Position numbers and translations under genes: made by a program. The notes under the pieces were generated by a model that was given only the letters and a program-made list of their open reading frames with translations, did not search any database and was not told the origin of the DNA. From positions 549,000-612,999 of the forward strand of contig CAWKHH010000007.1 in the NCBI GenBank assembly GCA_963849385.1: a stretch of 64,000 nucleotides of DNA, given 5' to 3'. The stretch is from Ignavibacteriota bacterium (GTDB taxonomy: Bacteria; Bacteroidota; Ignavibacteria; UBA10030; UBA6906). Shown here in pieces: positions 10,969 to 64,000 of the stretch (within the stretch, counting starts at the first letter, position 1; each line of letters begins with the position of its first letter).

Positions 10969-10970
10969 AT

Positions 10971-40868: not shown

Positions 40869-40875
40869 TCGAGCT

Positions 40876-45833: not shown

Positions 45834-46940
45834 ATGATGAAAATCCCGTTTCTCGACCTCAAAGCGCAGTACGCGTCAATCAAAGATGAAGTCCTTCCTG
45901 CCATCCAGGGCGTCCTGGACAACACGGCGTACGTCCTGGGCAAAGCCGTGAGTGATTTTGAGGCGGCTTTTGGAAAGGAGCATGGCGTCAGCTATTGTTA
46001 TGGCGTAAGCTCCGGCACTGACGGCAATCACATGGTCCTCTGGGCCCTCGGCGTCGGGCCCGGAGATGAGGTGATCATGCCGGCAAACACCTTTATCGCG
46101 ACGGCGTGGGGAGCGACGCTGTGTGGAGCCACCCCGGTGTTTGTGGACTGTGAACCCGACAGTTACAATATTGATCCCACAAAAGTTGAGGCCAAAATCA
46201 CGCCACGCACGAAGGCGATTGTGGCGGTTCATCTGTATGGCCAGCCAGCGGATATGGATCCCTTGAGCCAGATTGCGCGCAAGCACAATATTGCGCTGGT
46301 TGAAGACTGTGCGCAATCTCACTTTGCAGAGTACAAGGGCAAACGTACCGGCGGACTCTCCCGGGCTTCATCCTTTAGTTTCTACCCGGGGAAGAACCTG
46401 GGTGCATATGGAGAGGGTGGGGCTGCTGCGACGAATGATGCCGGGCTGGCCCACAAGTTCAAGATGATTCGGGATCACGGAGCGGAGAAGAAATATCATC
46501 ACGAAATGTACGGACACAACTACCGGATGGAGGGCATTCAGGGGGCGGTGCTCGGTGTGAAGCTCCGTCACCTCGGTGCGTGGACCGAAGCGCGGCGCCG
46601 CAACGCGGCACTCTACAACAAGCATCTTCAGGGAATTCCCCATGTGACTACCCCGAAGGAGATGCCCTATGCGAAGCACGTGTACCACCTTTATGTGATC
46701 AGGGTCACAAAGCGTGACGAGCTGCAGAAGTATCTGGAGGAAAAGGGAATTTCCACCGGTCTCCACTACCCGATTCCTCTCCATGTGCAAAAGGCATTTG
46801 CTCATTTGGGATACAAGGAGGGGGATTTTCCCGTGACGGAGAGATTAGCGAACGAGATCCTGTCGTTGCCAATGTATCCGGAGTTGACCGAGGAGCAGAT
46901 CAAATACGTGTGTGGAGCGATCCGGGAGTTCTACTCGTAA
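45834..46940 (+). CDS. DegT/DnrJ/EryC1/StrS-family PLP-dependent sugar aminotransferase (WbpE-like)
   Basis: IPFLDLKAQY...GVSSGTDGNHM... The ATG at 45834 was chosen over the in-frame upstream ORF-track start. Confidence 0.9.
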   Translation: MMKIPFLDLKAQYASIKDEVLPAIQGVLDNTAYVLGKAVSDFEAAFGKEHGVSYCYGVSSGTDGNHMVLWALGVGPGDEVIMPANTFIATAWGATLCGATPVFVDCEPDSYNIDPTKVEAKITPRTKAIVAVHLYGQPADMDPLSQIARKHNIALVEDCAQSHFAEYKGKRTGGLSRASSFSFYPGKNLGAYGEGGAAATNDAGLAHKFKMIRDHGAEKKYHHEMYGHNYRMEGIQGAVLGVKLRHLGAWTEARRRNAALYNKHLQGIPHVTTPKEMPYAKHVYHLYVIRVTKRDELQKYLEEKGISTGLHYPIPLHVQKAFAHLGYKEGDFPVTERLANEILSLPMYPELTEEQIKYVCGAIREFYS

Positions 46941-47006: not shown

Positions 47007-47272
47007 GCATTAGTGAGGGCCATCACGATTGCAGGAATGGTTTATTTGCGGGTTATTTCTGCACATAGTACACAGAGTCGAACCGGATAATTTGTTGATT
47101 TTGGCCTGAATTGGGGTTTGTGACGTAGCTCACGGTTCCAGGCGCTACTCTTTTCTACATTGTATCAACTCGTCCGGTAGATTTGACTGAATCCTGCAGT
47201 TTGCTTTTTGACGGCCCTTATGGTAAATTATTTCGCAAATTTTATCGACTCTCTGAAAGGGGAGAAGGAACC

Positions 47273-48736
47273 ATGGTTGCTCTGAAAAAACGCCCTGCAT
47301 ACACATATATCCTGATGGCGCTCGACTGGCTGACGATTCTGGCGGCTCTTTCCATTGCCATTACGCTCCGGGGCCGGGAATTTGCCGGGGAGTTCAAGTT
47401 TGTCGGCGCTCCCCTGGAATGGGAGGCGATCTTTCTCTGCCTTTTCAGCGCTGCTGCGACCATGGGCTTCTCATACATCGGGCTATACAGCGTGAATGTC
47501 TTTATCACTGTTGCTGATCAGACAGTGCGGATACTGAAGGCCCTGTTTTTTACGATCCTGGGTCTGGCGCTCCTCGCCTTCTTCATCCGGACCTCGTGGA
47601 TTCTTGACAGTCGTTTGGCAATGGTCTATTTCTCTCTCATTTCCGTCGCGCTTATGGTTGGCGGACGGGTGATCGTATTCAGGAACATTTATCTTTGGCT
47701 CTCCCATCGCAAGGTATTCCATCGCAACGCCTTGATCGTGGGTGCCGGACAGAACGGCAAGAATCTGGCCATTAATTTATTCCTGAACGATCACCTCGGG
47801 TTGAATTTGGTGGGATTTCTTGATGACGACCTGTCGCTCGGCAAGGTTGTGTTCAACCGGTCCAAGGTGCTGGGGCGGGTTGCTGAGCTTAAGGACATCG
47901 TCAATGTGTTCGACATACAGGAGATCATCGTAAGCCTTGAGAACGTGGATCACACAAGGCTGATCAATGTTCTGGATACCGCCACGGCCACAGACGCCGT
48001 CGTGAAGATTTCCTCGCCTCTCTACGATGTCGTGCCCTCCCGGCTTTTCATTGAAAAATACGGGAATCTCCCTGTTGTCGGCATCTCTCATTTCAGTCCC
48101 GGTCCGGTGCTCGAAGTGTACAAGCGCGTCTTCGATTCCATCGTAGCCGCCGCCGGTCTTCTTTTCCTTGCACCGATTCTTGTGACGATCGCTGCTGTGA
48201 TCCGGCTGGATTCTCGCGGCCCCATCTTCTTTTCCCAGGTTCGCATCGGCAAGAACGGCAAACCCTTCAAGTTCTACAAGTTCCGTTCCATGCAAATCGG
48301 AAGTGATCAGGACAAAGATCGGGAAAAAACGGTTGTGCAATTCATTCAGACGAAGGCCAAAACCAGGCCGGCGGGAAAAGCCTCAACAAAGATTGTCAAT
48401 GAATCACGGGTGACGCGCGTTGGCCGCTTCTTGCGGAAGACCAGTCTTGACGAGCTGCCGCAGTTGTTCAACGTATTGAAGGGGGATATGAGCCTGGTCG
48501 GTCCGCGCCCCTGCCTCCCGTATGAGTGGGATCACTATGAGGAATGGCACAAACGCCGTCTCAGCGTAATGCCCGGGTGTACCGGGATGTGGCAGGTCGC
48601 AGGGCGCAGCGTTGTGGGATTTGAAGATATGGTTGTGCTCGATCTGTACTACATTCAGAATGCGTCAGTCCTTCTGGATTTCGGTTTGCTTCTCAAAACG
48701 CTCCCCGTCATGCTCTTTGGTTCGGGGGCAAAATAA
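47273..48736 (+). CDS. Undecaprenyl-phosphate sugar phosphotransferase (WbaP/PssY-type initiating transferase)
   Basis: N-terminal TM domain plus C-terminal FYKFRSM...[33 protein letters not shown] precedes the ATG at 47273. Confidence 0.9.
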
Positions 48737-48749: not shown

Positions 48750-49754
48750 ATGAAAATCGGCGTTGTTGGTTTTGGTTACTGGGGCCCCAATCTTGTTCGC
48801 AACTTCCAGTCCACCCCTTCTGTTGACGGGGTGGTCTGCTTTGATACCTCGGAAAAACGACTTCAGGTCGCAAAGCAGAAGTTCCCGTCCATTGAGACGG
48901 TCACCCGATACGAAGATCTTCTCAAACGCGACGATGTGAAGGCGATCGCTATCGCTACGCCGGTCTCGACCCACTTTGCGCTTGGCATGAAAGCCCTCGA
49001 AGCGGACAAACACGTTCTGCTTGAGAAGCCGATGGCGGAGAGCGGTGCACAGTGTGAGCAGATGGTCGAGCTTGCCGCGAAGAAGAAGCTGGTGTTGATG
49101 GTGGATCACACGTTCATCTACACGGGTGCAGTGCGCAAGATCAAGGACATGATCGCCGAGGGGCGCCTCGGCGAGATCATGTACTTCGATTCGGTACGTG
49201 TCAACCTTGGCCTGTTCCAGCATGACACGAACGTCTTGTGGGATCTCGCTCCGCACGACCTGTCGATCATGGACTATCTCATCGGGCAGGATCCGGTTGG
49301 GGTGTCCGCTATCGGCGCGAAGCATTTCAACGACATGGAAGACATCGCATACCTGACCGTTCGCTACAACAGCCAGCTTCTCGCACATTTCCACGTGAAC
49401 TGGATGTCGCCTGTGAAGGTACGCAAGATTCTGATCGGTGGCAGCAAGCTGATGGTTGTGTATGACGATATGGAACCGAGCGAGAAGTTGAAAGTGTACG
49501 ACAAGGGCGTTGACATAAAGGAACGCGAATCCATTTACAAAGTCCTGGTGCAATATCGCACAGGCGATATGTGGGCGCCGAAGATTGATCTGGGGGAGGC
49601 CCTGAGTCTGATGTGCAATGATTTTGTCGACGCAATCAAGAACGGAAGACGCCCGACGACAGACGGACGTGCTGGCATGAAAGTTGTACGCATTCTGGAG
49701 GCTGCGCAACAGTCCTTGCGTGCAGGGGGAACTATGGTCAATTTGGGCCAGTAG
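48750..49754 (+). CDS. Gfo/Idh/MocA-family NAD-dependent sugar oxidoreductase (WbpB-like)
   Basis: MKIGVVGFGYWGPNLVRNF Rossmann N-terminus and EKPMAES motif. Confidence 0.85.
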   Translation: MKIGVVGFGYWGPNLVRNFQSTPSVDGVVCFDTSEKRLQVAKQKFPSIETVTRYEDLLKRDDVKAIAIATPVSTHFALGMKALEADKHVLLEKPMAESGAQCEQMVELAAKKKLVLMVDHTFIYTGAVRKIKDMIAEGRLGEIMYFDSVRVNLGLFQHDTNVLWDLAPHDLSIMDYLIGQDPVGVSAIGAKHFNDMEDIAYLTVRYNSQLLAHFHVNWMSPVKVRKILIGGSKLMVVYDDMEPSEKLKVYDKGVDIKERESIYKVLVQYRTGDMWAPKIDLGEALSLMCNDFVDAIKNGRRPTTDGRAGMKVVRILEAAQQSLRAGGTMVNLGQ

Positions 49755-49800
49755 TTCTGCCCGAAGAATCTCATCAATCATCCATGACGGAGAATAGCGC

Positions 49801-50273
49801 ATGTCCCTTCAGAAAATCGCGCCTTCAGTAAAACTGGGCAAAGACGTCAAGATTTTCGACTTTGTGAACCTCTACGGTTGTGAGATTGGCGATGGCTCTA
49901 AGATCGGCACCTTTGTGGAGATCCAGAAGAATGCGCGGGTAGGCAAAAACTGCAAGATTTCGACCCATACGTTCATCTGCGAAGGTGTCGTGATTGAAGA
50001 CGATGTATTTGTCGGGCATGGTGTCATGTTTATCAATGACAAATACCCCCGGTCCACCACGAAGGCGGTGGGATGCAGACTGAGGCTGACTGGAAGGTCG
50101 TCCCCACGCTGATCAAACGCGGTGCCTCGATTGGCACTAACACTACGATTTTATGCGGGGTTACGGTAGGTGAGAAGGCTGTTGTCGGTGCTGGAAGTGT
50201 GGTTACCAAAGATGTCCCCCCAAACACGATTGTTGCTGGCGTGCCTGCCCGTGTTCTGAGGAAAGTCGATTGA
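49801..50273 (+). pseudogene. Hexapeptide-repeat sugar N-acetyltransferase (WbpD/WlbB-like) split by a 1-nt indel near 50064
   Basis: Left-handed beta-helix repeats continue from ...[13 protein letters not shown] (frame 1) into [36 protein letters not shown] (frame 0). Confidence 0.75.
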
Positions 50274-50298
50274 ATTAACTACTGGTGGATGGAGAATA

Positions 50299-53156
50299 AT
50301 GCGCATGTGTACGAAATTTGTCATCAAGAAGGAGTCAACGATGAAGCACTTGCATGGTTGGTTTTCCGTATTTGTCCTCCTGGCCCTGATTTCTCTCCTG
50401 GGACTGGGAGAGGCGTTTGCAGGGAAGACGACGTTTGTCTCGTCGGATTTCAACTCCTACAGCTTCAATAAGAATCTGTGGACCCTTGTCAATCCCCGCG
50501 GAGACGGGGCACTCTCGATGATCGGCACGAACACCATCAATGCCGCAATCTCGATCAAGGGGCATGCCGGCATCGAACATGATGTTTTTCCAACCGGCGA
50601 CTACACCGTCCGGATTCTTCAAACAGCCACCAACACAGACTTCAATATGGAGGTCAAGTTTCTCTCGGGATTGGTCGGCGGGACGTTCGAAGCATACACC
50701 GCACAGGGCGTGCTCATTGAAGAAAATGCGACAAGCAAGATTATGTTCTGTTTCACCACGGGGACAACAGACAGCGTCCGCGCTTATGCGGCGGCATATG
50801 TTGGCGGACTCAGCTCTCCGAGTGTGAAGGTGAACAGGAAGATGGCCGCGCTGGGCTCAGGCCCGCTCTGGATGCGCGTCTCGCGGACGGGCAATTCCTG
50901 GACGTTCAAATACTCGCTGGATGGCACGAACTGGGATACCGCTGTGACATTTACCCAGTCCTTCACAGTGACGAAGGTCGGTCCGTTCTCACTTAACGCC
51001 GGAACAAAGGCGGCGGACTTTGCCGCTGTTGTGGACTATTTCTATAACCTGGATTCTGTTGCGACTCCGGACGACAGTCTCGCCGCTCCCCCGGATACCG
51101 TGGCAGCCTACATCCATGGTGTGCGGGTCGAAAACGTGGCCTCGAATGCCACACAGATTGCGTGGAATACCGACAAACTGAGTGACGGCGTAGTAGAATA
51201 CGGGACAACACCATCCTACGGTCTGAACGCTTTCGCTCTCGACAGTAGACTATGAGCATCTTGTGACGATCACCAACATCAATCCCTCGACAACATATAA
51301 CTACCGGGTGAAGGCAGGTGATGCGGGAAGCCGGATCTCCACAACGGGAAACTTTACTCTGGCAACTCCCGGGAGCGCCACTGATGTCTCGAGTAGATCC
51401 GATGCATTCAGTGATGCGGCATTGAACACAAGTCTCTGGAGTGTGGTTGACTACCGCGGGGATGCGCTGACGGCTATCGTCAATGATCAGCTGGCAATCA
51501 CGGTGCCCGGGGGGACCCCGCATGATCTCTGGTCGGATGGGGATTTCCTCCCGCGTGTTGTCCAGACCCTTCCGAACTCTGATGTGCGCGAGTTTATCGT
51601 GCGATACAACACGGGCGTTTCAGGATCAGCATCCACTTTTCGGTTCGAGGGGATGGTGTTCGAGGAATCCCCCTCCCGGCTCCTGCGATTTGATTTCCTG
51701 AATGATGGATCCAATACCCGTGCGTTTGCCGCGAGCTTCTTCGGCCTCGAGCATCCGGTTGTCCGGTTCAACGTCTCGCTGGGTCCCAGCGAAATAGCCC
51801 CTCTCTATATGCGGGTACGGCAATCCGGCGCGTTGTGGACTCTGGACTATTCCTTTGATGGAACCTCCTGGACTCAGGCGGGAAGTTTCTGGGATTTTCT
51901 TTCCCCCGCCAAGGTTGGTATCAGCACGGGCAATTCGGCCGATGTGGGCCTGTCGCCGCCGGACTACACATCGCTGATCGATTTCTTCCAGGGAGCTCTT
52001 CCGGCAAAGACAAAGCTTGGCGCGCCGGCGAACGACGCCACCAGTCTTTCGATCCCCGTTCAGCTGACCTGGAGTGTGACGATCGGCGCGACCGGATACC
52101 ACGTCCAGGTCGCGAAGGACTCACTGTTCACGGTGATGGTCGCCAATGATAGTCTGCTGACGGTTCCGGTGAAGAACCTTACGGGCCTGCAGACCGATAC
52201 CAAGTACTACTGGCGTGTGAAGGGAAAGAACACCAAGGGAAGCGGTTCATATTCGGACGTGTGGAACTTCACGACGATTCCCGGAGTTCCCGGAGCGCCA
52301 ACGCTTCTCGCGCCGGCCAACAGTTCTTCAAACCAGCCTGTGAGCCAGACTCTCCGCTGGTCGAAGATGTCGAGCGCACTATCCTACTATGTCCAGCTGG
52401 GATCAGACTCTACGTTTGCGACGGCTCTGGTCGTCAATGACTCCACCATAGTCGATACGGTCCAGGCGGTTACCGATCTCACGCAGAACACAAAATACTT
52501 CTGGCGAGTGCGGACGAAGAACGTGTCAGGTATTGGACCATTCTCCGCCATCTGGAATTTCAGGACGGTAGTCCCGCCGCCAACAGCGGTGACTCTTGCC
52601 CTTCCCGCCATGAACGCCTTTGTAACGAGGGATACCGTTCTCCTCGTCTGGCGCAAAGCAGATCCGGCCGTGACGAAATATACTCTGGTTCATGGGCCGG
52701 ATTCGCTCTTCGCGTTTGGCGCTACGGATTCGAGCATTACCGATACCACAAAGATCATTCGATCGATTACCAACAATACGCGCTATTTCTGGAAGGTCCG
52801 CGCCGGGAACGCCTCAGGTTGGGGTCCGTACAGTGAAGTGCGTGCGTACAACGTGGTGATCACCTCTGTGGCAACGGAGCGTGAGCTGCCGAAGGAATTC
52901 GTTCTGTCGCAGAACTATCCCAACCCGTTCAACCCTGCGACACGTATTGAATTCGGTGTTCCGGCACGTCGGTCACGTTACGCTGGAAGTGTACAGTATG
53001 CTGGGTGAAAAGGTTGCCACTCTTGTTGATGGGGAACAACAGCCCGGGTATCATCAGGTGGTCTTTGACGGTGCTCGGTTTGCCAGCGGTGTCTACCTCT
53101 ACAGGCTCGTGACTGAAAATGCGTCGTTGATGAGAAAGATGGTGTTGGTGAAATAG
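50299..53156 (+). pseudogene. T9SS cargo protein (2x ConA/LamG-like, FN3-like repeats, C-terminal sorting domain) with two frame disruptions (about 51240 and about 52965)
   Basis: Signal peptide. An FN3 module is split across the stop at 51255 (...VEYGTTPSYG / YEHLVTITNINPSTTYNYRV). The sorting domain is split (NYPNPFNPATRIEFGVP / HVTLEVYSMLGEKVATLVDG...MVLVK). Confidence 0.75.
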
Positions 53157-53285
53157 GATGGACGCCGGATTGCATCGCGGGGAGCGCTGCCTGACCGGGA
53201 GTTCACTCCCGGGGCAGTCTCCCCGGCTGCATTCACCACCAGGTGTCAAATGAATCCTGCGGGACTTTCATAAGGAGACTGCTCG

Positions 53286-55748
53286 ATGAAACGATGGTTC
53301 GCAAAGTTAGCCCAGCATACAGCAATCCTGGTACTCATGGTTGCAGCTGCCGGCACAAGTGATGCACAGCGGTTGTTGCGCGGTCCCCAGGCCGGTGATA
53401 TCTACAAGGAGTATTCGCGGACGATGATGACATACGCTGACTGGCGGGTGATTGATCCCAACGCGACGAATGCGGATGCACGGACCTATCTCCCCAATCC
53501 GGTGCTGTATTTCACGGTCTCCGATCTTCAGCATGCGATCCGTGCTGAAGCGGTGATCGACATGTGGGGTGGCCATGCAGGGACAACGCAAAAGCGGGTC
53601 CGGTTCAATGAGAATGACTGGATTCTCCTGCCCGAACTGAATACGACACCGGGGAGCGGGGAGTGTTATCTTTCGGAATTCAACCCGGTGGTGGATGTCC
53701 CCCTTGCGAATCTCACTGAAGGAGCGAACTCCGTTGAAGGAACGAACGCAGGGCAGATTTGCTATGATTTTGGCTGGGGCCAGTGGGGCTTCAACGGGAT
53801 CGTCTTGCGCGTGTATTACGATTCCACGAAGATCCATCCGACCGGATCCATTACCTCCGTCGCACAGGGAGGGGCACTCACAGAGAATCCCGTCATCACG
53901 GTCAATGCTTCGAGCCCCGTTGGTATCAGCAGGGTGGATTTCATCGGGTGGTACGAAAGCTATGATACGGACGGCGACGGGGTGTACATAGACTGGCAGT
54001 ATAACTATCACCGGGGGAGGACGGAAACGGTTGAGGCGTTGCACAATCATATCGGAACGGCATCGAGTGCACCCTGGTCTGTGACGTGGAACACCGATCG
54101 TGTCCCCGACCAGGTTCTGGGTGGTGTCACACTCGGCGCTCTCATCCGTGACAACAACGGCGTCATGTACATGGCCCCGTACGTTGAAGACGTCTCTCTC
54201 GTCCGCGCCAACAAATCAGTCCGGCTGTACAAGCCGTACAATATGCCTGAAAACTGCGAGCTGCGGGTCGGCAAAACCAAATACGCCAATTTTTCCATAC
54301 CGTCCGGAACAAACCTTTCGGATGCGACTGCGGCCACATTCTGGATCTCGTCGTTCAATGGTCTGGATGTGGGGATCGCCGGGGGAGAACAGCACTGGGT
54401 AAAGGTGAACTCCCACGCACTACCGTCGTTTGGTGCAGACCATTTCTATTCGCTTGATGTGGTTTCATTCCCGTCCTCGGCGCTTATCGTGGGGGAAAAC
54501 ACGGTGGAGTTCTATTCGGAATCTCAAAGTACCGGCATGATGTTCCACTGGCCCGGACCGGGGATTATGGTGGGGTACACGGGAAGTGCGTACGGATCAC
54601 CCAAACCGCCGGCACCCGCACTGTCGTCACCTGCCAACAACAACGATTCGCAGCCGCTCAGTACGACACTCCGGTGGCGGAAAGCCTGGACTGCGAGCTC
54701 GTATCGTCTGCAGGTGAGCGCTGATTCGACATTCGCCACGGTTGTGGTCGATGATTCCACAATCACCGATACCACGGGGCAGGTGAGCAACCTCACGCCG
54801 TTTACGAAGTACTTCTGGCGCGTGAGGGCGAAAAATGCGGCCATGGCCGGAGATTTTTCACCGGCGTGGAACTTTACCACATTCGTTCTCCTGCCTACGC
54901 TTGTCTCTCCGGCGAATAACAGCACGGGCCTTGTCGTCACTCCGACATTGCTGTGGCGCAAGGTTGCCGGGGCCACCAAATACTATGTTCAGCTTGGCAT
55001 CGACCCGTCATTTGCGGGTGGTCTTGTCGTAGATGATTCAACGCTGACCGATACGACCCGCGCCGTCGCCGGACTGTCGTATAATACACTGTACTCTTGG
55101 CGGGTTGCCGCGAAGACTGCATCGGGCTTCGGTACGTTCACGCCTGCATGGAGCTTCACTACCCTTGTTCCCGTTCCGGGTCAGGTGACGCTGGCCGGTC
55201 CGGCCAACAACAGCAATTTGACGAGCGACAGTGTCACATTCACCTGGCGCAGGCAGAACGGGGCGACAAAGTACTGGATCGAAGTGGGATTCGACTCCGT
55301 CTTTACATACACACAGGTTGATACGGCGGTGACAGACACTGCGAAGGGCTTCAAGCTGGCGGTGAACAACCACACCTACTTCTGGAAAGTACGTGCCGGG
55401 AACGCCGGTGGCTGGGGTTCATTCAGTACGCTGCGTCGCATCAATGTGGCCTGGACGGGTGTCGACTATGTTGCAGAGCTGCCCAAAGAGGTGCGGCTCC
55501 ACAATAACTACCCGAATCCGTTCAACCCGACAACCCGTATCGCCTTTGATCTTCCGCGCGAATCACACGTCACGCTGGAGGTCTACAGCATTCTCGGTGA
55601 ACGGGTGGCATTGCTGGTCGACGAAATGAGAGCAGCGGGATATCACCAGCTGCAATTTGATGCGAGCGGACTCGCGAGCGGCGTGTATCTGTACCGGCTG
55701 ACGGCAAATGACGTGACCCTCATGAAAAAGATGGTGCTCATGAAGTAG
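53286..55748 (+). CDS. T9SS cargo protein: unknown 430-aa N-terminal domain, 4 FN3-like modules and a C-terminal sorting domain
   Basis: Signal peptide; repeated KYFWRVRAKN...W.FTT modules; sorting domain NYPNPFNPTTRIAFDLP...MVLMK. Confidence 0.85.
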   Translation: MKRWFAKLAQHTAILVLMVAAAGTSDAQRLLRGPQAGDIYKEYSRTMMTYADWRVIDPNATNADARTYLPNPVLYFTVSDLQHAIRAEAVIDMWGGHAGTTQKRVRFNENDWILLPELNTTPGSGECYLSEFNPVVDVPLANLTEGANSVEGTNAGQICYDFGWGQWGFNGIVLRVYYDSTKIHPTGSITSVAQGGALTENPVITVNASSPVGISRVDFIGWYESYDTDGDGVYIDWQYNYHRGRTETVEALHNHIGTASSAPWSVTWNTDRVPDQVLGGVTLGALIRDNNGVMYMAPYVEDVSLVRANKSVRLYKPYNMPENCELRVGKTKYANFSIPSGTNLSDATAATFWISSFNGLDVGIAGGEQHWVKVNSHALPSFGADHFYSLDVVSFPSSALIVGENTVEFYSESQSTGMMFHWPGPGIMVGYTGSAYGSPKPPAPALSSPANNNDSQPLSTTLRWRKAWTASSYRLQVSADSTFATVVVDDSTITDTTGQVSNLTPFTKYFWRVRAKNAAMAGDFSPAWNFTTFVLLPTLVSPANNSTGLVVTPTLLWRKVAGATKYYVQLGIDPSFAGGLVVDDSTLTDTTRAVAGLSYNTLYSWRVAAKTASGFGTFTPAWSFTTLVPVPGQVTLAGPANNSNLTSDSVTFTWRRQNGATKYWIEVGFDSVFTYTQVDTAVTDTAKGFKLAVNNHTYFWKVRAGNAGGWGSFSTLRRINVAWTGVDYVAELPKEVRLHNNYPNPFNPTTRIAFDLPRESHVTLEVYSILGERVALLVDEMRAAGYHQLQFDASGLASGVYLYRLTANDVTLMKKMVLMK

Positions 55749-55776
55749 TCCTCCGTCGCCGATGGTGTATTTGTGT

Positions 55777-55807
55777 AGGCCCTCGCAGGCTTGCTTCTTG
55801 CGAGGGC
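55777..55807 (+). terminator. Hairpin after the 53286-55748 cargo gene
   Basis: GGCCCTCGCA-ggcttgcttct-TGCGAGGGCC (10-bp stem) 30 nt after the stop codon. Confidence 0.35.
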
Positions 55808-55884
55808 CTCTGTGTATCGCGAAATCATGCTGACAGACAGGAGTTACGGTTCGCGGAACAGGGTTCCTATCAAAGGAGACACAC

Positions 55885-58003
55885 GTGGATAGCATTGTGA
55901 CGTTCGCACGGAGAATGAACGCGGCAGTTCTCGGCCTGGCAATGGTACTCCTCATCGTTGCGGGAACGCATGCCGATGCCGGTTGGTGGAATACCAGCTG
56001 GCGGTTTCGCGTACCTGTCCAGTTCTCGACCGGGCAGGTCGATCGGATACGGAAACCCGCCGAGGCGCATATTGATTTTTCTGCGCTTGTGGGGCAGCTT
56101 GGCACGCAGGGGAAGTTCGATCCGGCGACACTCCGAGTCGTCGAAGTGGATCAGGCAGGAGAACCCCTGGTGGACACAGTCGCATTCCAATTTGACCGCG
56201 ATCCGGATTATAATGACTCGACCAAAGCAGCGGGCACGCTTGTTGTCTTGATGACCGGCACGACTCCCGCCTCCACAGCGCGGAACTATATGGTGTACTT
56301 TGATTTTGCCGGCCAGGGAGGCTCCCCCGCGGTCGTGCCGCCCCGAGTGACAGTCACTGACGGCATCTGGGATGAAGCCCAGGAATGTTTCAAGATCACC
56401 AATGCTTCAGGAACGATTTACTATCAGAAACTCGGCGCTGCATTCTCGAGCTGGGTGGACAACAATGGCAATGATTGGGTAGGATACAACCCGACGTACA
56501 ACAGTGAAGCTGCCGGGGACGCCCGCGGGATTCCGAACTCATGCTATCCCCGGGGGTTCTTTCATCCCGGCGCAAGCGGCGATGCAGGGTCGATCAGCAC
56601 CATCACCCATCAGGGCCCATTGAAGATCACCATTCACTCCATTCTGACGTCCGGTTTCTTCGAATGTCAGTGGGATATCTACCCCGAGTACGCACGGCTG
56701 ACCATGCTCAAGACTGACAGTGCGTATTGGATTCTCTATGAAGGGACGCCCGGCGGTGTGATGGAACCGGATGTGGACTTCGTGACGCGGAGCGACGGCA
56801 GAAAGACCATGGCGTCGGAGATGTGGGTTGAAGATCTGGAGCCGGAGGAATGGGCGTACTTCAGTGATCCGAACGTGGATCGTTCGCTCTTTCTTTTCCA
56901 TGAGGAGAATGACCATATTGTCGATCAATACTACGCAATGACGTCTGTTGCTCCCCCGTTGGACGGGAAAATGACGGTATTTGGCTTCGGGCGGCAGTCT
57001 CACTTCATGTATTTGTACAACACTCCCCAGCATTTCACGTACGGCATAATTGATGGGACGAAGCTACACACCGACTGCGGCGTTGATTCGCTCGGCAGGC
57101 GGTGTCCTGACTGCAACCATCGGTCAGCCCGAGCAACTTCAGATGACACCGGTCACACTCCTGGCGCCCCCCGACGGAGCCACATACCAGGCGCGCACTT
57201 CCCGTCTCTCCTGGCGGGCATATCCGCTGGCGACCCGCTACCGCGTCCAGATCGCCGTTGACTCTCTCTTTGTACCGGTGTCGATCGTTGCCGATGCTTC
57301 CCCAACCGACACATCCTATACACCGGGCACGTTGGCCGCCAGCACCAGATTCTACTGGCGTGTCGCGGCCGGCATGTCCTCCTACACACTCCCATTCGGT
57401 CAGGCCTGGAGATTCGAGACGGTGGGTGGAGTGCCCAATCAGGTGAAATTGGCGTATCCGGCAAATGGTGGATGGGCACGCAGCGACAGTGTAGTGTGCC
57501 GCTGGAATCGCATGCCCGGCGCCGAGCGGTACGCAGTGGAATGGACGCAGGATTCGCTGTTTGCATATCCCGACATGGATTCCACGTTGACGGACACCGT
57601 GGCGGTGCTCTCGCTTGACCTGGGGCAGTATTTCTGGCGGGTTCGTGCGCGGAACGAAGCCGGCTGGGGTCCCTATAGTGTAATCCGGAACTTCAATACC
57701 AGCCTGACCCATGTCAATGACCCTGCGGGGATGCCGGATGCCGTGCGTCTTCTTCAGAATTTTCCGAACCCGTTCAATCCGTCCACTATTATCGAATATT
57801 CACTTCCGGCTGCAGGAAGAGTGAGGCTGGCAGTGTTCAATACTCTGGGGCAGACCGCTGCAACTCTCGTGAATGAATCCCAGAATGCCGGTTTGCACTC
57901 TGTGGTATTTGCGCCCGAAACTTCTTTGCCTTCGGGTGTCTATTTCTATAGACTCGAGATAAATGGCCAGGCGTGGACACGGGCGATGCTCCTTCTGCGG
58001 TAA
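55885..58003 (+). pseudogene. T9SS cargo protein (novel N-terminal domain, FN3-like modules, C-terminal sorting domain) with a frameshift near 57050-57120
   Basis: Frame 1 is coding up to ...HFTYGIIDG and then degenerates. Frame 2 continues SYTPTAALIRSAGGVLTATIGQPEQ... through the FN3 modules to the sorting domain NFPNPFNPSTIIEYSLP...MLLLR. Confidence 0.75.
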
Positions 58004-58060
58004 CGGGCTCAGTGTTGCGGACCATATGAAATCACAAAGTGATGAAAGAGGACGGGACTC

Positions 58061-60901
58061 GTGAGAATGCTGACGAAACCAGTGCACGCTCGCTATTGGA
58101 TTACGCTTCTCCTGTTCTCCTGGTTGCTGTTCGGAGGGGGGGGGCTCGTACCGGAGAGAGCGCATGGTCAGGAATCGGGCGAGAGGGTCGCCTCTTCTGC
58201 ATCGACCAGTGGGACGACGCTGACATTCTGGTACGGGAAACGCCAGACGTTCGGCCGGATCGGTGTGCCGCAGCGGTGGGTGAATATCCTGGGAAATGTG
58301 TCTGACCCGAATGGCATTGCCGCGCTCAACTACACGTTGAATGGCGGAACGGTGGTCACGCTGGGGGTCGGTCAGGATACGCGACGCCTGTCGAGGACCG
58401 GTGATTTCAACATCGATATTGCCTATAGTGCACTGCGGACGCTCCCCGACTCGAACATCGTCGCTGTCACAGCGCGGAATGGCCTGGGCGTGTTCACGCG
58501 TGACACGGTGGTTGTACAGTATCTCTCCGGCACCGTGTGGCCGCGCGTCTCTACAACGAGCTGGGGAAATGCAAGCTGTCTCACTGATTCTGTGCAGGTG
58601 GTAGACGGTCTGTGGCATCTGACCTCCGATGGCCTCAGGATTACGAATGTCGGCTATGATCGACTTGTCGCCATCGGCGATACGACCTGGAGAGATTTTG
58701 AGGTCACTGTGCCTATCACGATTCACAGCTACGATCCTGCGGGATACGGTTCAATCAACGGGAGCCCCTCCGTCGGTCTGTTCCTGGGGTGGTCCGGTCA
58801 TTCCGATGACCCGATTTCGGGGTGGCAGCCGAAGACCGGGTACAAGCCTTTTGGTTGCGGGGGGTTCTACAGGTTTGAATCCACCGGAGAGCGGTTGGCG
58901 ATCTGGGACAAGGTTTCAGACAACAGCGGCAAGACTATTCCTTACGACGTCCCCTACTACTTCAAGATGAGAGTGGAATGGACGGGAGCTGGCATTCTCT
59001 ATTCCTTCAAAACGTGGGACGTAAGCGTTTCGGAGCCTGCCAGGTACGATCTCACCTGGCAGGGACCTGTGACCGATCCTCAACGGGGATCAATCGTGCT
59101 CCTGTCGCACTTTGTGGATGCGACATTCGGGACTGTAACCATACAGCCAATCACCAGTGATCACCAGTCTCCTCTCCTGAGCGGATTGTCCGTGATCAGG
59201 GGAAGGACGTCGGCGGAAATCCTGTGGCTGACAGATGAACTGGCGCGGAGCCGGATCGAATATGGTTTAACGACCACCTACGGGACCGAAATGGCTAAAG
59301 CGGCCATGGACACGCAGCACGATTTCACGCTCACCGGACTCACACAGAACACGACATATCATTACCGTGTGAAATCGTTTGATGAGTGGGGGAACGCGGC
59401 AGTGTCTGCGGACCAGGTGTTCACGACAACCGGTCTCTCCGCGATTGTCACAGATGAATTCAACGTCCAACCCCTTGACTCGGCACTCTGGGCCGTTCAG
59501 AATCCGCTCGGGGATGCGACCGTGGCGGTGCAGGGGGGTAACCTCCAGATAGTCCTTCCGCAAAACGTCGAGCACACCGTTACGGGTAGCGGGAGCAGCA
59601 TGCCGCGCATTGTGCAGCCGGCAACGGACGGAGACTTCGACGTTGAGGTGAAGTTCGCGAGTGTGATGAGTCAGCAGGTCCAGACCGTCGGCATTGATGT
59701 TATTGCAGACGCCACGAACTACGTTCAGTTTGAAATCTACTCGAACGGATCATCCTTGCGGGCATATGCGGGAGTCGTGGTAGGGAATAGTCCATCGAGC
59801 CGCTCTGACGTAGCTCTTGGTCCAAACGGCACGGCGCCGTTGTATATGCGCATCAAACGTGAGCGCAACACCTGGACACAAACGGTTTCGCTCAACGGAT
59901 CCACATGGACTCAGGCGGCAGCGTTCGCCCATACGCTCACCGTGCGGAACCTCGGGCTCGTGGCAGGGAACTATGGATCACCGGTTCCCGCTAACACAGC
60001 CCTCTTTGACTACATCCACGCGACGCTTCCGCCGGTTCCGCAGCTGGTGTCACCTCTGAACGGGGCGAGTGGTGTGAACACGACGGTCACACTGGCGTGG
60101 TCTTCTTCACCCGGCGCGACGGGATATGATATCCAGGTGGCCACCGATCCATCCTTCTCCTCCGGCGTCGCGGTCAGCGACTCGCTGATCACAGGGACTA
60201 CCCGCCAGGTGAATGGCCTGACCGCGTTCACGAAGTATTACTGGCATGTGCGGTCGCGCAGTGCAGACGGGAAGGGACCCTATTGTATGAGCCGGTCGTT
60301 CTCCACCTTCCTTCCGGTTCCGAACCAGGTCACTCTGGTCGCGCCGGTCAACAACATGCGTACGTCGGCGGATAGTGTCGTGTGTGTCTGGAAGAAGAAC
60401 AACCAACCCGGCACGCGCTACTGGTTTGAGATCACCGATGACTCTTTGTTTGCCTGGCCGGATCTTGATTCCTCTCTCACCGACACAGTCAGAATTCTCC
60501 GGGGCCTCGAGCTCGAAAAGCTCTATTTCTGGAGAGTGCGGGCGGGAAATCTGACAGGGTGGGGGCCGTACAGTGAGATCCGCAGATTCAGGCGCAGTCT
60601 TACCGATGTCACGGTGGACCATGAAGTGCCCCGGGAAGCCTCGCTCGCACAAAACTACCCCAATCCGTTCAATCCGGCTACAGTGCTCGAATATGGTGTG
60701 CCATCCAGGTCCCATGTCCTGCTTGAAGTGTTCAACGCGCTGGGACAACGTGTGGCGGTACTGGTAGATGAAGAACAGGAGAGAGGATACCATCGGGCGC
60801 AATTCGCGTCGAACGGACTCTCGTCAGGCATATATTTCTATCGACTCTCGGTGAACGGGGGCGAACATGTCTTCGTCAAACGCATGACGTTGATCCGATG
60901 A
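58061..60901 (+). CDS. T9SS cargo protein with two ConA/LamG-like domains, FN3-like modules and a C-terminal sorting domain (946 aa)
   Basis: Signal peptide; two beta-jelly-roll-like regions (...YYFKMRVEWTGAGILYSFKTWD..., ...LYMRIKRERNTWTQTVSLNGSTWTQ...); sorting domain NYPNPFNPATVLEYGVP...MTLIR. Confidence 0.85.
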   Translation: MRMLTKPVHARYWITLLLFSWLLFGGGGLVPERAHGQESGERVASSASTSGTTLTFWYGKRQTFGRIGVPQRWVNILGNVSDPNGIAALNYTLNGGTVVTLGVGQDTRRLSRTGDFNIDIAYSALRTLPDSNIVAVTARNGLGVFTRDTVVVQYLSGTVWPRVSTTSWGNASCLTDSVQVVDGLWHLTSDGLRITNVGYDRLVAIGDTTWRDFEVTVPITIHSYDPAGYGSINGSPSVGLFLGWSGHSDDPISGWQPKTGYKPFGCGGFYRFESTGERLAIWDKVSDNSGKTIPYDVPYYFKMRVEWTGAGILYSFKTWDVSVSEPARYDLTWQGPVTDPQRGSIVLLSHFVDATFGTVTIQPITSDHQSPLLSGLSVIRGRTSAEILWLTDELARSRIEYGLTTTYGTEMAKAAMDTQHDFTLTGLTQNTTYHYRVKSFDEWGNAAVSADQVFTTTGLSAIVTDEFNVQPLDSALWAVQNPLGDATVAVQGGNLQIVLPQNVEHTVTGSGSSMPRIVQPATDGDFDVEVKFASVMSQQVQTVGIDVIADATNYVQFEIYSNGSSLRAYAGVVVGNSPSSRSDVALGPNGTAPLYMRIKRERNTWTQTVSLNGSTWTQAAAFAHTLTVRNLGLVAGNYGSPVPANTALFDYIHATLPPVPQLVSPLNGASGVNTTVTLAWSSSPGATGYDIQVATDPSFSSGVAVSDSLITGTTRQVNGLTAFTKYYWHVRSRSADGKGPYCMSRSFSTFLPVPNQVTLVAPVNNMRTSADSVVCVWKKNNQPGTRYWFEITDDSLFAWPDLDSSLTDTVRILRGLELEKLYFWRVRAGNLTGWGPYSEIRRFRRSLTDVTVDHEVPREASLAQNYPNPFNPATVLEYGVPSRSHVLLEVFNALGQRVAVLVDEEQERGYHRAQFASNGLSSGIYFYRLSVNGGEHVFVKRMTLIR

Positions 60902-60924: not shown

Positions 60925-61887
60925 ATGCCCCCGGCACATCGACCCGAATTCAGCGCGGTAGTTCCCACGTACAACCGCGCTGATCTCGTGGCGCGGGCAA
61001 TCGACAGCGTCTTTCGGCAATCATTCCCCCCCGCAGAAATCATCGTGGTCGATGACGGCTCGACGGATGAAACCGAAAGTGCTGTTCGTCAGTTCGGCGA
61101 TGCCGTTCGATTTATCCGCCAGGAAAACAGGGGCGGGGCGAGCGCTCGAAACCGGGGTGTTCAGGAAGCACGTTCAGCGTGGGTCGCTTTTTTGGATTCG
61201 GATGATGTCTGGACGGATACCCATCTCGAGAGAATTGCACAGGCCATCCAGGATACCGGTGGGAAAGCCGTGCTGTATTTTGACGACATGCTTCTCCCCG
61301 ACGCGCCGGATGCCACATGGTGGACCCTGGGGGGGTTCAGCATTCCCGGGGACCATCTCATGGTCCCTGATGGCGCCGACTGGGTACTCAGGGAATTTCA
61401 ACCCATGATGCTGCAGACGTCGGTGTGTTGTCGCAGCACGTTTCTGGAAGAGGGAGGACTGTGGGAAAAGCTTCGCAACGCGCATGATACGCATTTCTTC
61501 TTAAAGCTGGGTATCGGGCGGCCCGTGTGTGCCGTTGGGGGTATCGGATGCCGGCAGACTGCGGATGCTCCCGGTAGTTCGCGCTTGACTTCCAGCACGC
61601 TTCAGAAGCGGCGGTTCAAGAACAGGACCCTTGCCTTTCGCGATATTCTCCGCAGGAAGCCTCACCTTGCTCCTTCGCAGCGCAACTGCCTGCGTCAACG
61701 CGTCGCGTCGTCCTTCTGGACGCTGGGACGGATTGCATGGGAGGAGAAGCGTCCTATAGAATGCCTGGCGTATGTGCTGCGATCGGTGATGACCGACGTG
61801 CCTGCTGCTGCGTTCTTTGCCGTGCGGGCAATTCGCAATCGCCGAGGGCGCACCACACATCCGCGTGAAGCAGCAAAGCAGCGATGA
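60925..61887 (+). CDS. Family-2 glycosyltransferase
   Basis: FSAVVPTYNRADLVARAIDSVFRQSF...IIVVDDGSTD...FLDSDD (DXD). Confidence 0.85.
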   Translation: MPPAHRPEFSAVVPTYNRADLVARAIDSVFRQSFPPAEIIVVDDGSTDETESAVRQFGDAVRFIRQENRGGASARNRGVQEARSAWVAFLDSDDVWTDTHLERIAQAIQDTGGKAVLYFDDMLLPDAPDATWWTLGGFSIPGDHLMVPDGADWVLREFQPMMLQTSVCCRSTFLEEGGLWEKLRNAHDTHFFLKLGIGRPVCAVGGIGCRQTADAPGSSRLTSSTLQKRRFKNRTLAFRDILRRKPHLAPSQRNCLRQRVASSFWTLGRIAWEEKRPIECLAYVLRSVMTDVPAAAFFAVRAIRNRRGRTTHPREAAKQR

Positions 61888-61888
61888 A

Positions 61889-62887
61889 ATGATCACGGGA
61901 GTGCCAGGACAGATCATGGGCGCACACAAACTGAGCGTTGTCGTTATTGCTCGCAACGAAGAGAATGCTATAGCCCGCTGCCTCGCTTCGGTTGTTCGGG
62001 CTGTGGCCGACCGGGACGCGGAAATTCTCTTCGTTGACTCTGCCTCGACGGATCGTACTGTTGAAATTGCCCGGCAGTATCCGGTCAGTATCGTGCGTCT
62101 CGATCCTCAACTTCCCCTCTCTCCGGGTGCCGGCCGTTGGCTGGGAACTCGCCTTACCAAGGGAGAATACGTTTGTTTTATTGACGGCGACATGATTGTC
62201 ATCGAGGGATGGCTCACGCAGGCCCTTGAAATCCTGAGCGATCACCGCATCGGGGCTGTCGGGGGACGTTTGTTCTGGATTCTTCCCGGTGAGGATCTCC
62301 ATCTTGGTCATCGGGATGACTTCCCGTTGGGGGTGGTCCCGGGGCTTGGGGGGGCGGGTGTGTACCGGAGGCATGCCTTGCAGGAATGTGGCAGCTTCAA
62401 TCCATTCCTTCGAGGGGAGGAGGAGCGTGAACTTGCCTACCGTTTATTCTCCGGCGGATACAAGGTCATGCGTGTTGAGTCTCCAATGGCCTACCACCTC
62501 AACAAGCCCCGAAGCGTTCAAGAAAACGTTGAGCGGGCTATCTACTTCAGGGGAGTCGGGCAGATCATGCGGCGCTATCCGATGCGGGCAATTTTCTGGG
62601 ACCTGCTTAAGGAACAGAAGGAACCCTTTCTTTTCTGGGTCTTCGTGGTCGGGTTGTTTGTTGGTTTTGCGATTGCAGCAGCAACGAGTTCCAACCTGCT
62701 CCTGGGAGTGCTGATGGCCGTCACCCTGACAGGAGCGATGACTCTCGGGATCTGGAAAGGGTTTCACAGAGTGTGGCTCTACCTCCACGAGCAATTGCTT
62801 ATCGGTCTCCATTTCGTGCAGGGACTGATGATCGGTCTGCCACCGGCTGATCAGTATTCAGAGAGCTTTACCAGGGTAACACAGTGA
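61889..62887 (+). CDS. Family-2 glycosyltransferase with C-terminal TM segments
   Basis: LSVVVIARNEENAIARCL...LFVDSASTDRT...FIDGDM. The ATG at 61889 lies 1 nt after the upstream stop. Confidence 0.8.
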   Translation: MITGVPGQIMGAHKLSVVVIARNEENAIARCLASVVRAVADRDAEILFVDSASTDRTVEIARQYPVSIVRLDPQLPLSPGAGRWLGTRLTKGEYVCFIDGDMIVIEGWLTQALEILSDHRIGAVGGRLFWILPGEDLHLGHRDDFPLGVVPGLGGAGVYRRHALQECGSFNPFLRGEEERELAYRLFSGGYKVMRVESPMAYHLNKPRSVQENVERAIYFRGVGQIMRRYPMRAIFWDLLKEQKEPFLFWVFVVGLFVGFAIAAATSSNLLLGVLMAVTLTGAMTLGIWKGFHRVWLYLHEQLLIGLHFVQGLMIGLPPADQYSESFTRVTQ

Positions 62888-64000
62888 TTCAAGAGAGCAG
62901 AACCACAACAGAGGAATCGGGTGGAGGATCGCTGAAACTCACCACCTTCCGGGGTGGCCTCTTGCTGGGAGGCGCAACCATCGGAACACGCATCTTCTCT
63001 GTGATCACTTCCATCATTCTGGCGCGTCTGCTGCTTCCTACAGAATTCGGGCAGGTGGATCTCGCAATGGTCGTTCTTACCATTGTTGCAATTTTTTCCA
63101 CACTGGGACTCCCTTCGGCGGTCATTCAAACGACTGCGGACAGGGGAAAATCGGCTTTCTCGGCTTTTCTTATCACCTTTTCGGCGGGGTGTCTGGTATT
63201 TCTCATCTGCCTTTTTGCCGCCCCCTGGCTGGGGTTCTTCTTAGGTGATCCCCATGTGGTTCCGGTTCTTCAGTGGTTATCTGTCACGGTGATGCTTGCA
63301 GGAGCGACACGGGTACCTGAAGCTCTCATCCAGAAAGAGCTCCTGTTCGGACGTATGAGTCTTATTAGCGTCCTGACCGAGGTGTCGACGGCAGCCGTTT
63401 CAATTGCTCTTGCCTGGATGGGGTGGGGTGTGTGGAGTCTTGTCTACGGGATGATTGTCGGCGCGGTACTTAATACGGTGCTGGCGTGGGCATTCTGCCC
63501 GCGTGTGACCTGGTTTCGTCTCTCTCAGTGGGACAGGGGAATTGCGGCCCAGATGCTCCGGTTCGGAGCGCAGATGGTCGGGAGTACGTCTGTGTACACC
63601 TTCTATTCGTATCTTGACAATTACGCAGTCGGCCGGATGCTGGGCACCGAAGCGTTGGGATACTACGGGCGGGCGTTCAATCTGACAAGCAAGACGGTTG
63701 ACAGTGTGAACCGTACCATCGGGGTGGTACTTTTCCCGTCGTATGCACAAGTACAACAAGACAAGGCGCGACTGTCGCGCGCCTACCTGAAGAGCCTTCG
63801 CATGATCAGCAGCATCACCATACCGGTGGCGCTCGGATTGTACGCGGTGGCCGATGAACTGATTCCTACGCTTCTGGGCAAAGCCTGGATTCCGGCGATC
63901 CCGGCGCTGAAGGTGCTTTCACTCATGAGTCTATTGAAACCCCTTTCGTCCACTACTTCAGCACTTTTCATCTCGACAGGACATCCCGGTTTCAATTTAC
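62884..64000 (+). CDS. Wzx-like polysaccharide flippase (MOP superfamily), 3'-partial; runs off the window end
   Basis: Probable GTG start overlapping the GT2 stop. N-terminus ...GGLLLGGATIGTRIFSVITSIILARLLLPTEFGQVDLAM followed by 10 or more TM helices. Not in the ORF track because it has no stop within the window. Confidence 0.75.
   Translation, partial: MIQESRTTTEESGGGSLKLTTFRGGLLLGGATIGTRIFSVITSIILARLLLPTEFGQVDLAMVVLTIVAIFSTLGLPSAVIQTTADRGKSAFSAFLITFSAGCLVFLICLFAAPWLGFFLGDPHVVPVLQWLSVTVMLAGATRVPEALIQKELLFGRMSLISVLTEVSTAAVSIALAWMGWGVWSLVYGMIVGAVLNTVLAWAFCPRVTWFRLSQWDRGIAAQMLRFGAQMVGSTSVYTFYSYLDNYAVGRMLGTEALGYYGRAFNLTSKTVDSVNRTIGVVLFPSYAQVQQDKARLSRAYLKSLRMISSITIPVALGLYAVADELIPTLLGKAWIPAIPALKVLSLMSLLKPLSSTTSALFISTGHPGFNL

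Follow-up and report, generated by a model that had tools for sequence, protein, structure and literature searches.

What would four large secreted proteins be doing among the glycosyltransferase genes of a bacterial polysaccharide locus? The question is raised by a stretch of 64,000 nucleotides from an Ignavibacteriota bacterium (GenBank assembly GCA_963849385.1, contig CAWKHH010000007.1, positions 549,000 to 612,999 of the forward strand), hereafter the window, in which four genes on the + strand, P1 (50299-53156), P2 (53286-55748), P3 (55885-58003) and P4 (58061-60901), encode probable cargo of a type IX secretion system (T9SS). These genes, referred to below as the cassette, are embedded in an exopolysaccharide (EPS) locus, a kind of locus usually annotated for cytoplasmic and export enzymes only, the extracellular architects of matrix or capsule being known in few model organisms. 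The reading that we favour, with moderate confidence and largely by analogy with known systems, is that P1-P4 are extracellular proteins that would bind, organise or process the EPS of their own locus. Secreted proteins encoded by EPS loci are already known as a kind, and what is new here is the finding of three unannotated module families together with a domain of unknown function (DUF), the pattern of their fusions and their delivery through T9SS.

Anatomy of the four secreted proteins

P1-P4 lie on the same strand, between a priming transferase gene with WbpB/WbpD-like genes on one side and a GT2-GT2-wzx set on the other, and the intergenic gaps are short (6-136 bp). P1, whose start codon is probably at 50341, shows a signal peptide, a DUF1349 domain of the concanavalin A (ConA)-like type, an Fn3 domain (PAP_N), a second ConA-like domain, four Fn3-like repeats and a T9SS C-terminal domain (CTD) of type A. 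P2 is intact and joins a signal peptide to a 410-aa N-terminal module of three β-sandwiches (P2_N) with a Big_7 domain in its middle, which is followed by Fn3-like repeats and a type A CTD. In P3, the signal peptide precedes a 385-aa module (P3_N) composed of an immunoglobulin (Ig)-like domain and a galactose-mutarotase-like supersandwich, two Fn3-like repeats and a type A CTD. P4, also intact, has a signal peptide, an unannotated module of ~330 aa (P4_N), a PAP_N-type Fn3 domain, a DUF1349-like ConA domain, two Fn3-like repeats and, again, a type A CTD. The signal peptides were recognised by eye (basic N-region, hydrophobic core and A-x-A-like site). The sorting domains score above the TIGR04183 cutoff (23 bits) in P2 (38.8 bits), in the C-terminal fragment of P3 (33.4 bits) and in P4 (34.2 bits); that of P1 passes only once its frameshifts are repaired (Pfam Por_Secre_tail, PF18962, 28.6 bits with a cutoff of 27).

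A previous interpretation made from the letters alone, the sequence-only reading, had described four secreted proteins with T9SS sorting domains, and both the gene ends and the presence of the type A domain in all of them (in P1 after repair) agree with the present analysis. Its four sets of coordinates likewise stand, but P1 and P3 are frameshifted and do not form single open reading frames (ORFs). Its description of a paralog cluster is right for the C-terminal halves (2-4 Fn3-like repeats plus CTD), which are paralogous with 39-49% identity, and for the PAP_N-type Fn3 and DUF1349-like region that P1 and P4 have in common, but not for the N-terminal modules of P2, P3 and P4, which are mutually unrelated. 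As to the flanks, WbpB/WbpD-like genes are indeed found upstream and the GT2-GT2-wzx genes downstream, but the WbpE-like DegT gene (45789-46940), counted by that reading in an upstream trio, lies before the priming transferase.

Conservation and fusion of the cassette

Related loci from metagenome-assembled genomes (MAGs) or metagenomes were fetched for comparison and are given here as L-numbers; the MAGs carrying the closest ones are labelled Ignavibacteriota, Ignavibacteria or "Bacteroidetes bacterium". Searches by tblastn with the window proteins revealed that the order P1-P2-P3-P4, between the priming transferase and the GT2 genes, is kept in L001-L008 and L034, with identities of the N-terminal modules across the conserved cassettes of 42-79% (52-77% for P2_N). 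In L001, L007 and L008, the cassette comes directly after the priming transferase, with no WbpB/WbpD-like genes alongside. The arrangement is not a product of chance, as it recurs in many independent loci, and this synteny in related genomes bears out the earlier claim that the cargo genes are functionally linked to the glycan locus, a tie that we regard as well supported.

The same modules also occur fused to each other. In L019, L040 and L089, a single ORF of 2633-2661 aa has the order P2_N-P3_N-DUF1349-P4_N-DUF1349. The ORF of L019 (2637-2661 aa), from a MAG labelled Deltaproteobacteria, comprises P2_N, Ig, CBM4_9, Flg_new_2 repeats, P3_N, three DUF1349/GH43_C2 domains (83.9 bits) and P4_N, lacks any T9SS tail, and is flanked by a Bac_transf gene upstream and by Wzm, Wzt (with Wzt_C) and GT2 genes downstream. 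Fusions in other orders were found in L104 (3393 aa), L069 (1899 aa, with CTD), L054 (2379 aa) and L098 (P2_N-P3_N), and partial ones in L010, L016, L017, L023, L028, L065, L095 and L103. Glycan genes are found near the modules in L089 (Bac_transf), L042 and L054 (GT2/GT4) and L090 (Wzx), one P4_N homologue resides in a glycan biosynthesis locus beside a VanZ-LamG protein, and a second module (E<=1e-10) is present in 15 of the 31 metagenome loci that were fetched through P3_N and span 10 kb or more. EPS genes in metagenome loci were detected by their similarity to the proteins of this window, so the counts are a lower bound. Judged from the sequences, such repeated fusions would be classic Rosetta-stone signs of modules that work together.

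The modules stay joined to each other and to glycan loci without a CTD in L019, L040, L089 and L104. Since the tie to glycan synthesis survives both a changed export route and the loss of the CTD, the link between the cassette and its locus is independent of the T9SS tail. This tail is an interchangeable address label, the route of the phylum to the cell surface or the medium.

Some variations on the cassette were also observed. An extra ORF of 373-428 aa, with neither a Pfam match nor a CTD, is inserted between P3 and P4 in L002 (14634-15755), L003 (11126-12247) and L005 (14561-15847); the window lacks it and has a gap of 57 bp at that place. In L001, L007 and L008 (e.g. L008:14777-19087), the P4 orthologue reaches ~1350-1440 aa through an N-terminal extension of ~480-600 aa that corresponds to no Pfam family. 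Further P2_N paralogues, often in tandem pairs or near GT2 genes, are found outside the cassette in cassette-bearing MAGs (L009, L011, L013, L014 and L026), and the P2_N family is therefore expanded within these genomes.

Module families and their folds

With the exception of the Big_7 Ig domain midway along P2, neither P2_N nor P3_N has a sequence match in Pfam, NCBIfam or the PDB. Single-sequence and profile searches of the PDB with P2_N, P3_N and P4_N returned nothing significant, and the P4_N core matches no Pfam family and no PDB entry or profile. Nevertheless, all three are families, with 79 homologues for P2_N, more than 160 for P3_N and 224 for P4_N; a 50%-identity representative library contains at least 558 P2_N clusters at E<=1e-30, looser thresholds being inflated by CTD and Ig columns. 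Elsewhere, members of the module families end in dockerin, Calx-β, cadherin-like, SLH or PEP-CTERM domains.

When modelled with AlphaFold2 (pLDDT 93.9), P2_N folds entirely into β-structure, in the form of three sandwiches, and Foldseek gives weak global matches (TM ~0.2) to BcsB and to β-sandwich parts of PL4 rhamnogalacturonan lyase and GH86. The model of P3_N (pLDDT 94.4) consists of the Ig-like domain and the supersandwich, and is aligned by Foldseek with the C-terminal part of GH38 (E 1e-9, TMq 0.41-0.48), with PL26 (5xq3, TMq 0.56) and with aldose 1-epimerase (3nre, TMt 0.44), at identities of 8-11% to these fold neighbours. In the GH38/PL26/epimerase supersandwich, P3_N aligns to the β-sandwich part only, without the catalytic domain of GH38 or PL26. 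More generally, the catalytic domains of GH38, PL26, PL4 and GH86 are absent from P1-P4, the fold matches being to accessory β-sandwich regions only. Because these matches fall on non-catalytic parts, P2 and P3 are not members of those glycoside hydrolase (GH) or polysaccharide lyase (PL) families. In both P2_N and P3_N, numerous polar and aromatic residues are invariant, as would suit either a site for binding sugars or an active site that has escaped recognition; among them are E55, D160, D165, R182, N186, H195, E254 and R338 of P3_N and, in the first domain of P2_N, a cluster of W, H, N, Q, R and Y residues.

For the DUF1349 family (PF07081, cutoff 32.4 bits), whose own function is not established, the domain of the repaired P1 (35.0 bits) and those of the L019 fusion pass the cutoff, but the P4 copy (27.9 bits) does not, and the PDB profile matches of the ConA-like domain are weak (E>=0.03). 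A by-eye guess that P4_N would also be ConA-like was dropped, as hhalign shows no relationship between P4_N and the DUF1349-like domains; the same comparison shows none between P4_N and P2_N. Altogether, the four module types look like carbohydrate-binding folds or accessory folds of carbohydrate-active enzymes (CAZymes). The sequence-only reading had found nothing recognisable in the N-terminal regions of P2 and P3, and had proposed them as novel domains of catalytic or binding type. The searches agree with the former, leaving aside Big_7, and the homologue families and models with the latter; structure prediction and Foldseek lead to no catalytic GH or lyase family for either region.

Sequence variation across the locus

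L006 (PMMO01000151.1), the closest relative, was taken as the reference for nucleotide comparison. Identity to this locus is 90-95% from 43.4 to ~49.95 kb, falls sharply at the upstream edge of the cassette to 58-74% (mostly 60-67%) within it (49950-60900), and amounts to 72-84% in the GT2 genes. An apparent divergence of the DegT gene from L006 (65% amino-acid identity) was rejected, as the nucleotide identity there is 87-93%. Compared as proteins, the cassette resembles L002, L003 and L034, which are more distant genomes, to a higher degree (71-79% identity) than L006 (54-68%). As far as can be read from these comparisons, the pattern suggests that the cassette underwent allelic replacement or recombination; the cassette behaves as an exchangeable and fast-diverging block, in the manner of the surface-exposed parts of polysaccharide loci.

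The polysaccharide locus

The region from 34 to 64 kb of the window is a single co-directional polysaccharide locus on the + strand. It starts with a Wzz/Wzc-type co-polymerase with tyrosine autokinase (34077..36422; Pfam Wzz, GNVR and AAA_31; TIGR01007 190.5 bits, cutoff 108), followed by an SLBB-domain protein (36292..36987; Pfam SLBB 40.8 bits, cutoff 27), a Wza-like export component in which only the SLBB part of a Wza is seen and whose gene adjoins Wzc in L001 and L008 too. Next come a GT4-type glycosyltransferase in two ORFs (37277-38005 and 37971-38462), with weak Glyco_transf_4 and Glyco_trans_1_4 matches, one per half, and a possible CE4 polysaccharide deacetylase, VimE-like at best (38493..39575; Polysacc_deac_1 21.5 bits, below its cutoff of 23.1, and no NCBIfam match). 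A hydrophobic multi-pass membrane protein, also in two ORFs (39566..40868), has no Pfam or NCBIfam match, joined halves included, and its place beside the Wza-like gene is kept in L001 and L008; it is, by inference, a candidate for the Wzy polymerase.

Downstream of these genes, a GT4 glycosyltransferase (40741..42006; Glycos_transf_1 91.8 bits) precedes a 393-aa (α/α)6-barrel-like protein (42003..43184) with sub-threshold or borderline matches to GH127, GH76, GH88 and pectate lyase; it might be a hydrolase or lyase of glycans, and could serve as the own polymer-trimming enzyme of the locus. A nucleotide-sugar 6-dehydrogenase (43174..44487; TIGR03026 397.7 bits, cutoff 189.8) would supply uronic acid, its best equivalog-type matches in NCBIfam being UDP-glucose 6-dehydrogenases, all below cutoff. 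It is followed by another GT4 glycosyltransferase (44459..45676; Pfam), by the WbpE-like sugar aminotransferase of the DegT/DnrJ/EryC1 family (45789..46940; Pfam 407 bits, no NCBIfam equivalog above cutoff) and by the priming polyprenyl glycosylphosphotransferase (47183..48736; TIGR03025 EPS_sugtrans 378.7 bits, cutoff 295.55; Pfam Bac_transf). Between the latter and P1 are found a WbpB-like sugar oxidoreductase of the GFO/IDH/MocA family (48750..49754; Pfam; NF040723, UDP-GlcNAc 3-dehydrogenase, 164 bits, below its cutoff of 450) and a frameshifted WbpD-like hexapeptide sugar N-acetyltransferase (49801..50273; Pfam Hexapep). Beyond P4, the locus continues with a GT2 glycosyltransferase (60925..61887; Glycos_transf_2 119 bits), a second GT2 with a C-terminal membrane region (61817..62887; Pfam 77.7 bits) and a Wzx-type flippase (62884..64000; Polysacc_synt_3 241 bits), which runs past the end of the window and whose GTG start overlaps the stop codon of the preceding GT2 gene.

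This is probably a Wzx/Wzy-type EPS locus, with several traits of a secreted EPS (Wzc autokinase, SLBB export protein, TIGR03025 priming enzyme and Wzx). Its Wbp set is made up of family-level matches, DegT and Hexapep being generic families and the WbpB-like and equivalog-type dehydrogenase models scoring below cutoff. A scan for promoters and terminators gave the same counts as shuffled sequence. The NCBIfam models of the PEP-CTERM/XrtA EPS systems all scored below cutoff on the locus, which was not assigned to that class. None of the components of the T9SS machinery (PorK/L/M/N, SprA/Sov, PorV, PorU, PorZ) was found within the 64-kb window; Ignavibacteriota are among the phyla listed as possibly having T9SS (PMC11285876). 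The genes 5′ of 34 kb are unrelated to the polysaccharide locus, with the exception of a surface protein encoded just upstream of it by a 3190-aa ORF (22947-32519), which combines TIG, Fn3 and quinohemoprotein-amine-dehydrogenase-like Ig domains and has a C-terminal tail of the FlgD_ig type. Between this gene and the EPS locus lie three small ORFs without annotation (32535-33950). Further upstream, a poly-ferredoxin-like 4Fe-4S protein lies between two DUF362 proteins (9388-13185), a group unrelated to the cassette.

A proposed action on the polymer of the same locus

According to the reading that we favour, P1-P4 would be co-expressed with the EPS genes and exported through T9SS and, once outside the cell, would act as one unit on the polymer produced by the same locus. 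They would bind this polymer and retain or arrange it at the surface in the manner of a matrix or capsule scaffold, and P3_N or the ConA-like domain might in addition trim or modify it. We infer the binding to the own EPS, as well as any enzymatic step, from genomic association and fold class; the hypervariability of the cassette fits surface-exposed proteins. A wider proposal, which we offer tentatively and consider possible rather than probable, is that P2_N, P3_N, P4_N and the DUF1349-like domains could form an unrecognised extracellular glycan-handling unit spread across several phyla, in which new lectin or CAZyme families would act after export on the polymer of the adjacent genes, for instance by capturing, trimming or cross-linking the nascent EPS on the cell surface, either as four T9SS cargoes or as one giant fusion.

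Several observations weigh against the favoured reading. Outside the cassette lineages, single modules are often found alone or in other contexts, and most single-module homologues of Planctomycetota and Chloroflexota do not belong to EPS loci. The P2_N homologue of Bythopirellula goksoeyrii (L030; CP042913.1, 4273182-4294693) resides in a sugar-catabolic cluster, with a 3-keto-disaccharide hydrolase, two GFO/IDH/MocA oxidoreductases, a heparinase II/III-like protein, an FGE-sulfatase-domain protein and a major facilitator superfamily transporter as neighbours, and the P3_N homologues of Fontivita and Chloroflexota, as well as L032, are not in EPS loci either. P4_N has no structural assignment, the fold matches of P2_N are weak, and the Pfam, NCBIfam and PDB searches place none of P1-P4 in a catalytic family. 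Moreover, the cassette is closer to L002 and L003 and both of its flanks, GT2 genes included, to L006, a difference in affinities which indicates that the alleles of the cassette do not just follow the glycosyltransferases. Finally, two of the four cassette genes are frameshifted in this genome, where the set might be decaying.

Alternative explanations

P1-P4 might themselves be substrates, that is, S-layer-like surface glycoproteins for which the surrounding genes would be a dedicated glycosylation cluster, similar to the slg clusters of Firmicutes and to the glycosylated T9SS S-layer proteins of Tannerella. The O-glycosylation sequon of Bacteroidota, D(S/T)(A/I/L/V/M/T), occurs 8-13 times per protein in P1-P4 and, in P1-P3, at ~3 times the shuffled expectation (z ~4), concentrated in the Fn3-like repeats, and most other proteins of the window show no such enrichment. 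The cassette is also hypervariable, as surface antigens are, and the Wzm/Wzt(Wzt_C) pathway of L019 is accompanied by methyltransferases, as in many S-layer/O-glycan clusters. However, much of the sequon count comes from a recurring DS(T/S)(I/L)TDT motif of the repeats, which are paralogous, so that the counts are not independent, and the sequon is that of Bacteroidota and may not be that of Ignavibacteriota. The fusions keep the N-terminal modules and not the sequon-rich repeats, family scans detected no oligosaccharyltransferase or Wzy_C-type ligase among the window proteins, and protein glycosylation does not need Wzc/Wza-like export genes. A role as glycosylated substrates is, in our view, unlikely.

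The sequence-only reading had suggested an anchor instead, in the form of a dedicated glycan that would tether the cargo to the cell surface. Spelled out, this would be a glycan or glycolipid whose linking sugar is a di-N-acetylated uronic acid of the Wbp type and to which a T9SS sortase would join the C-termini of the cargo, as in the anionic lipopolysaccharide (A-LPS) system of Porphyromonas gingivalis. The linking-sugar chemistry of the Wbp/Vim pathway is established in P. gingivalis and Tannerella forsythia (PMC7468200), and the locus has in common with that system the cargo with type A CTDs, present in all four proteins, a set of WbpB-like oxidoreductase, DegT aminotransferase and hexapeptide acetyltransferase genes together with a sugar dehydrogenase, and a Wzx-dependent assembly. 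A weak CE4 (VimE-like) match, the synteny of cargo and glycan genes and the possible presence of T9SS in the phylum also speak for an anchor. However, the modules keep their link to glycan loci without a CTD (L019, L040, L089 and L104) and without WbpB/WbpD-like genes (L001, L007, L008 and L019), so that the association here is independent of both. The Wzc kinase and the SLBB export protein, which set the locus apart from the A-LPS system, point to a released or capsular polymer rather than to an anchor linked to lipid A, and the dehydrogenase scores best with models of UDP-glucose and not of UDP-GlcNAc dehydrogenases. The scanned ORFs of the window gave no match to VimA/FemAB-like proteins, their sole CE4 signal being the sub-cutoff one of 21.5 bits, so no clear VimE was found, although both vim genes could lie in the genome outside the window, and none to Wzy_C/WaaL or PorU, the PorU model meeting only the CTD of P2 (17 bits). 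To our knowledge, the A-LPS genes of P. gingivalis are not clustered with the cargo genes, and we know of no clustering of cargo and anchor-glycan genes in model organisms; the co-localisation seen here is thus no feature of the known system. With the tie persisting in the absence of the CTD and of the WbpB/WbpD-like genes, and with Wza/Wzc-type proteins at the locus, we regard the A-LPS-like tether as improbable.

A different kind of alternative is that the P1-P4 array consists of decaying pseudogenes in this genome, the frameshifts of P1 (near 51243 and 52960) and P3 (near 57063) being real. They do stand in the deposited sequence, and a truncated P3 product of 458 aa is on record. However, at least six single-base frameshifts fall within ~21 kb and affect biosynthetic and cargo genes alike, housekeeping-type genes of the locus included: the WbpD-like gene (near 50060) is hit, and the GT4 gene (37277-38462) and the Wzy-like gene (39566-40868) are likewise split. 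Beyond each shift the reading frames remain open and conserved. The orthologues of the cassette are single ORFs in L002, L003, L005 and L006, with intact P1 orthologues of 939-977 aa and intact WbpD-like ones of 206-218 aa, and similar splits, though in other genes, are seen in the L001, L004 and L007 assemblies, which to judge from their contig names came from a long-read assembler. As the orthologues are intact, the frameshifts are probably assembly errors, which suggests a long-read assembly with residual indels, and a decay of the array seems just as improbable as the anchor. In any case, ORF-based annotation of this contig will come out fragmented.

It is very improbable that the four proteins have no functional link to the locus and are a secreted, CAZyme-like set for polysaccharide foraging lodged in a recombination-prone part of it, as the single-module homologues in catabolic or unrelated contexts, the abrupt break, suggestive of recombination, at the cassette's upstream edge and the fold neighbours among accessory domains of degradative enzymes could suggest, but against which stand the place kept between priming transferase and GT2 genes at 42-79% identity, also in another lineage with another export system, the co-directional and tightly spaced genes, and the lack of any recognisable catalytic GH or PL domain in P1-P4.

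Comparison with known systems

The favoured reading, of P1-P4 as proteins acting on the EPS of their own locus, has its closest parallel in Vibrio cholerae, where the rbm genes (for RbmA, RbmB and RbmC) lie between vps-I and vps-II. There, a Wzx/Wzy-type EPS locus has, next to its two halves or between them, genes for secreted proteins of Fn3 or lectin type and for a polymer-cleaving enzyme, all of which act on that EPS, a set-up that the present one would resemble. RbmA binds Vibrio polysaccharide (VPS) directly (PMC5605196), and RbmB is a VPS lyase, the synthesis machinery being encoded by vps-I and vps-II (PMC12993940). There is no sequence relationship between the rbm products and P1-P4, which belong to other module families and are exported by means of a T9SS tail, whereas the rbm products use the type II secretion system.

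The PEP-CTERM/exosortase systems likewise tie proteins with a C-terminal sorting signal, by genome position and by function, to an EPS locus in which a kinase of the Wzc type accompanies a Bac_transf priming enzyme. One of these proteins, PepA, involved in floc formation by Aquincola, turns soluble EPS into cell-bound EPS (PMC9850573). The sorting system is another one, a T9SS CTD in the case of P1-P4, with the XrtA models below cutoff at this locus; moreover, PEP-CTERM passengers are short and of low complexity, whereas the passenger domains of P1-P4 are large and folded.

A further parallel is offered by RemA of Flavobacterium johnsoniae, reportedly characterised by Shrivastava et al. in 2012 as a surface lectin that interacts with self-made polysaccharide. 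RemA is listed as a T9SS cargo (PMC5445135). The likeness lies in a T9SS cargo with a carbohydrate-binding domain that works with a Wza/Wzc-dependent polysaccharide; in contrast to P1-P4, RemA is encoded outside the polysaccharide locus, differs in its lectin domain and is associated with gliding.

Significance

The three module families count hundreds of members and lack a Pfam entry, and the fourth module is a DUF. The modules therefore provide tangible candidates, amenable to expression, for proteins that bind or process EPS in uncultured bacteria of the Fibrobacterota-Chlorobiota-Bacteroidota (FCB) group and beyond. A note of caution also follows for similar loci, as a neighbourhood of T9SS cargo and sugar genes need not mean an anchor of the A-LPS type. 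Finally, the hypervariable cassette may matter for interactions with phages and predators, and for strain typing of soil and sediment Ignavibacteriota.

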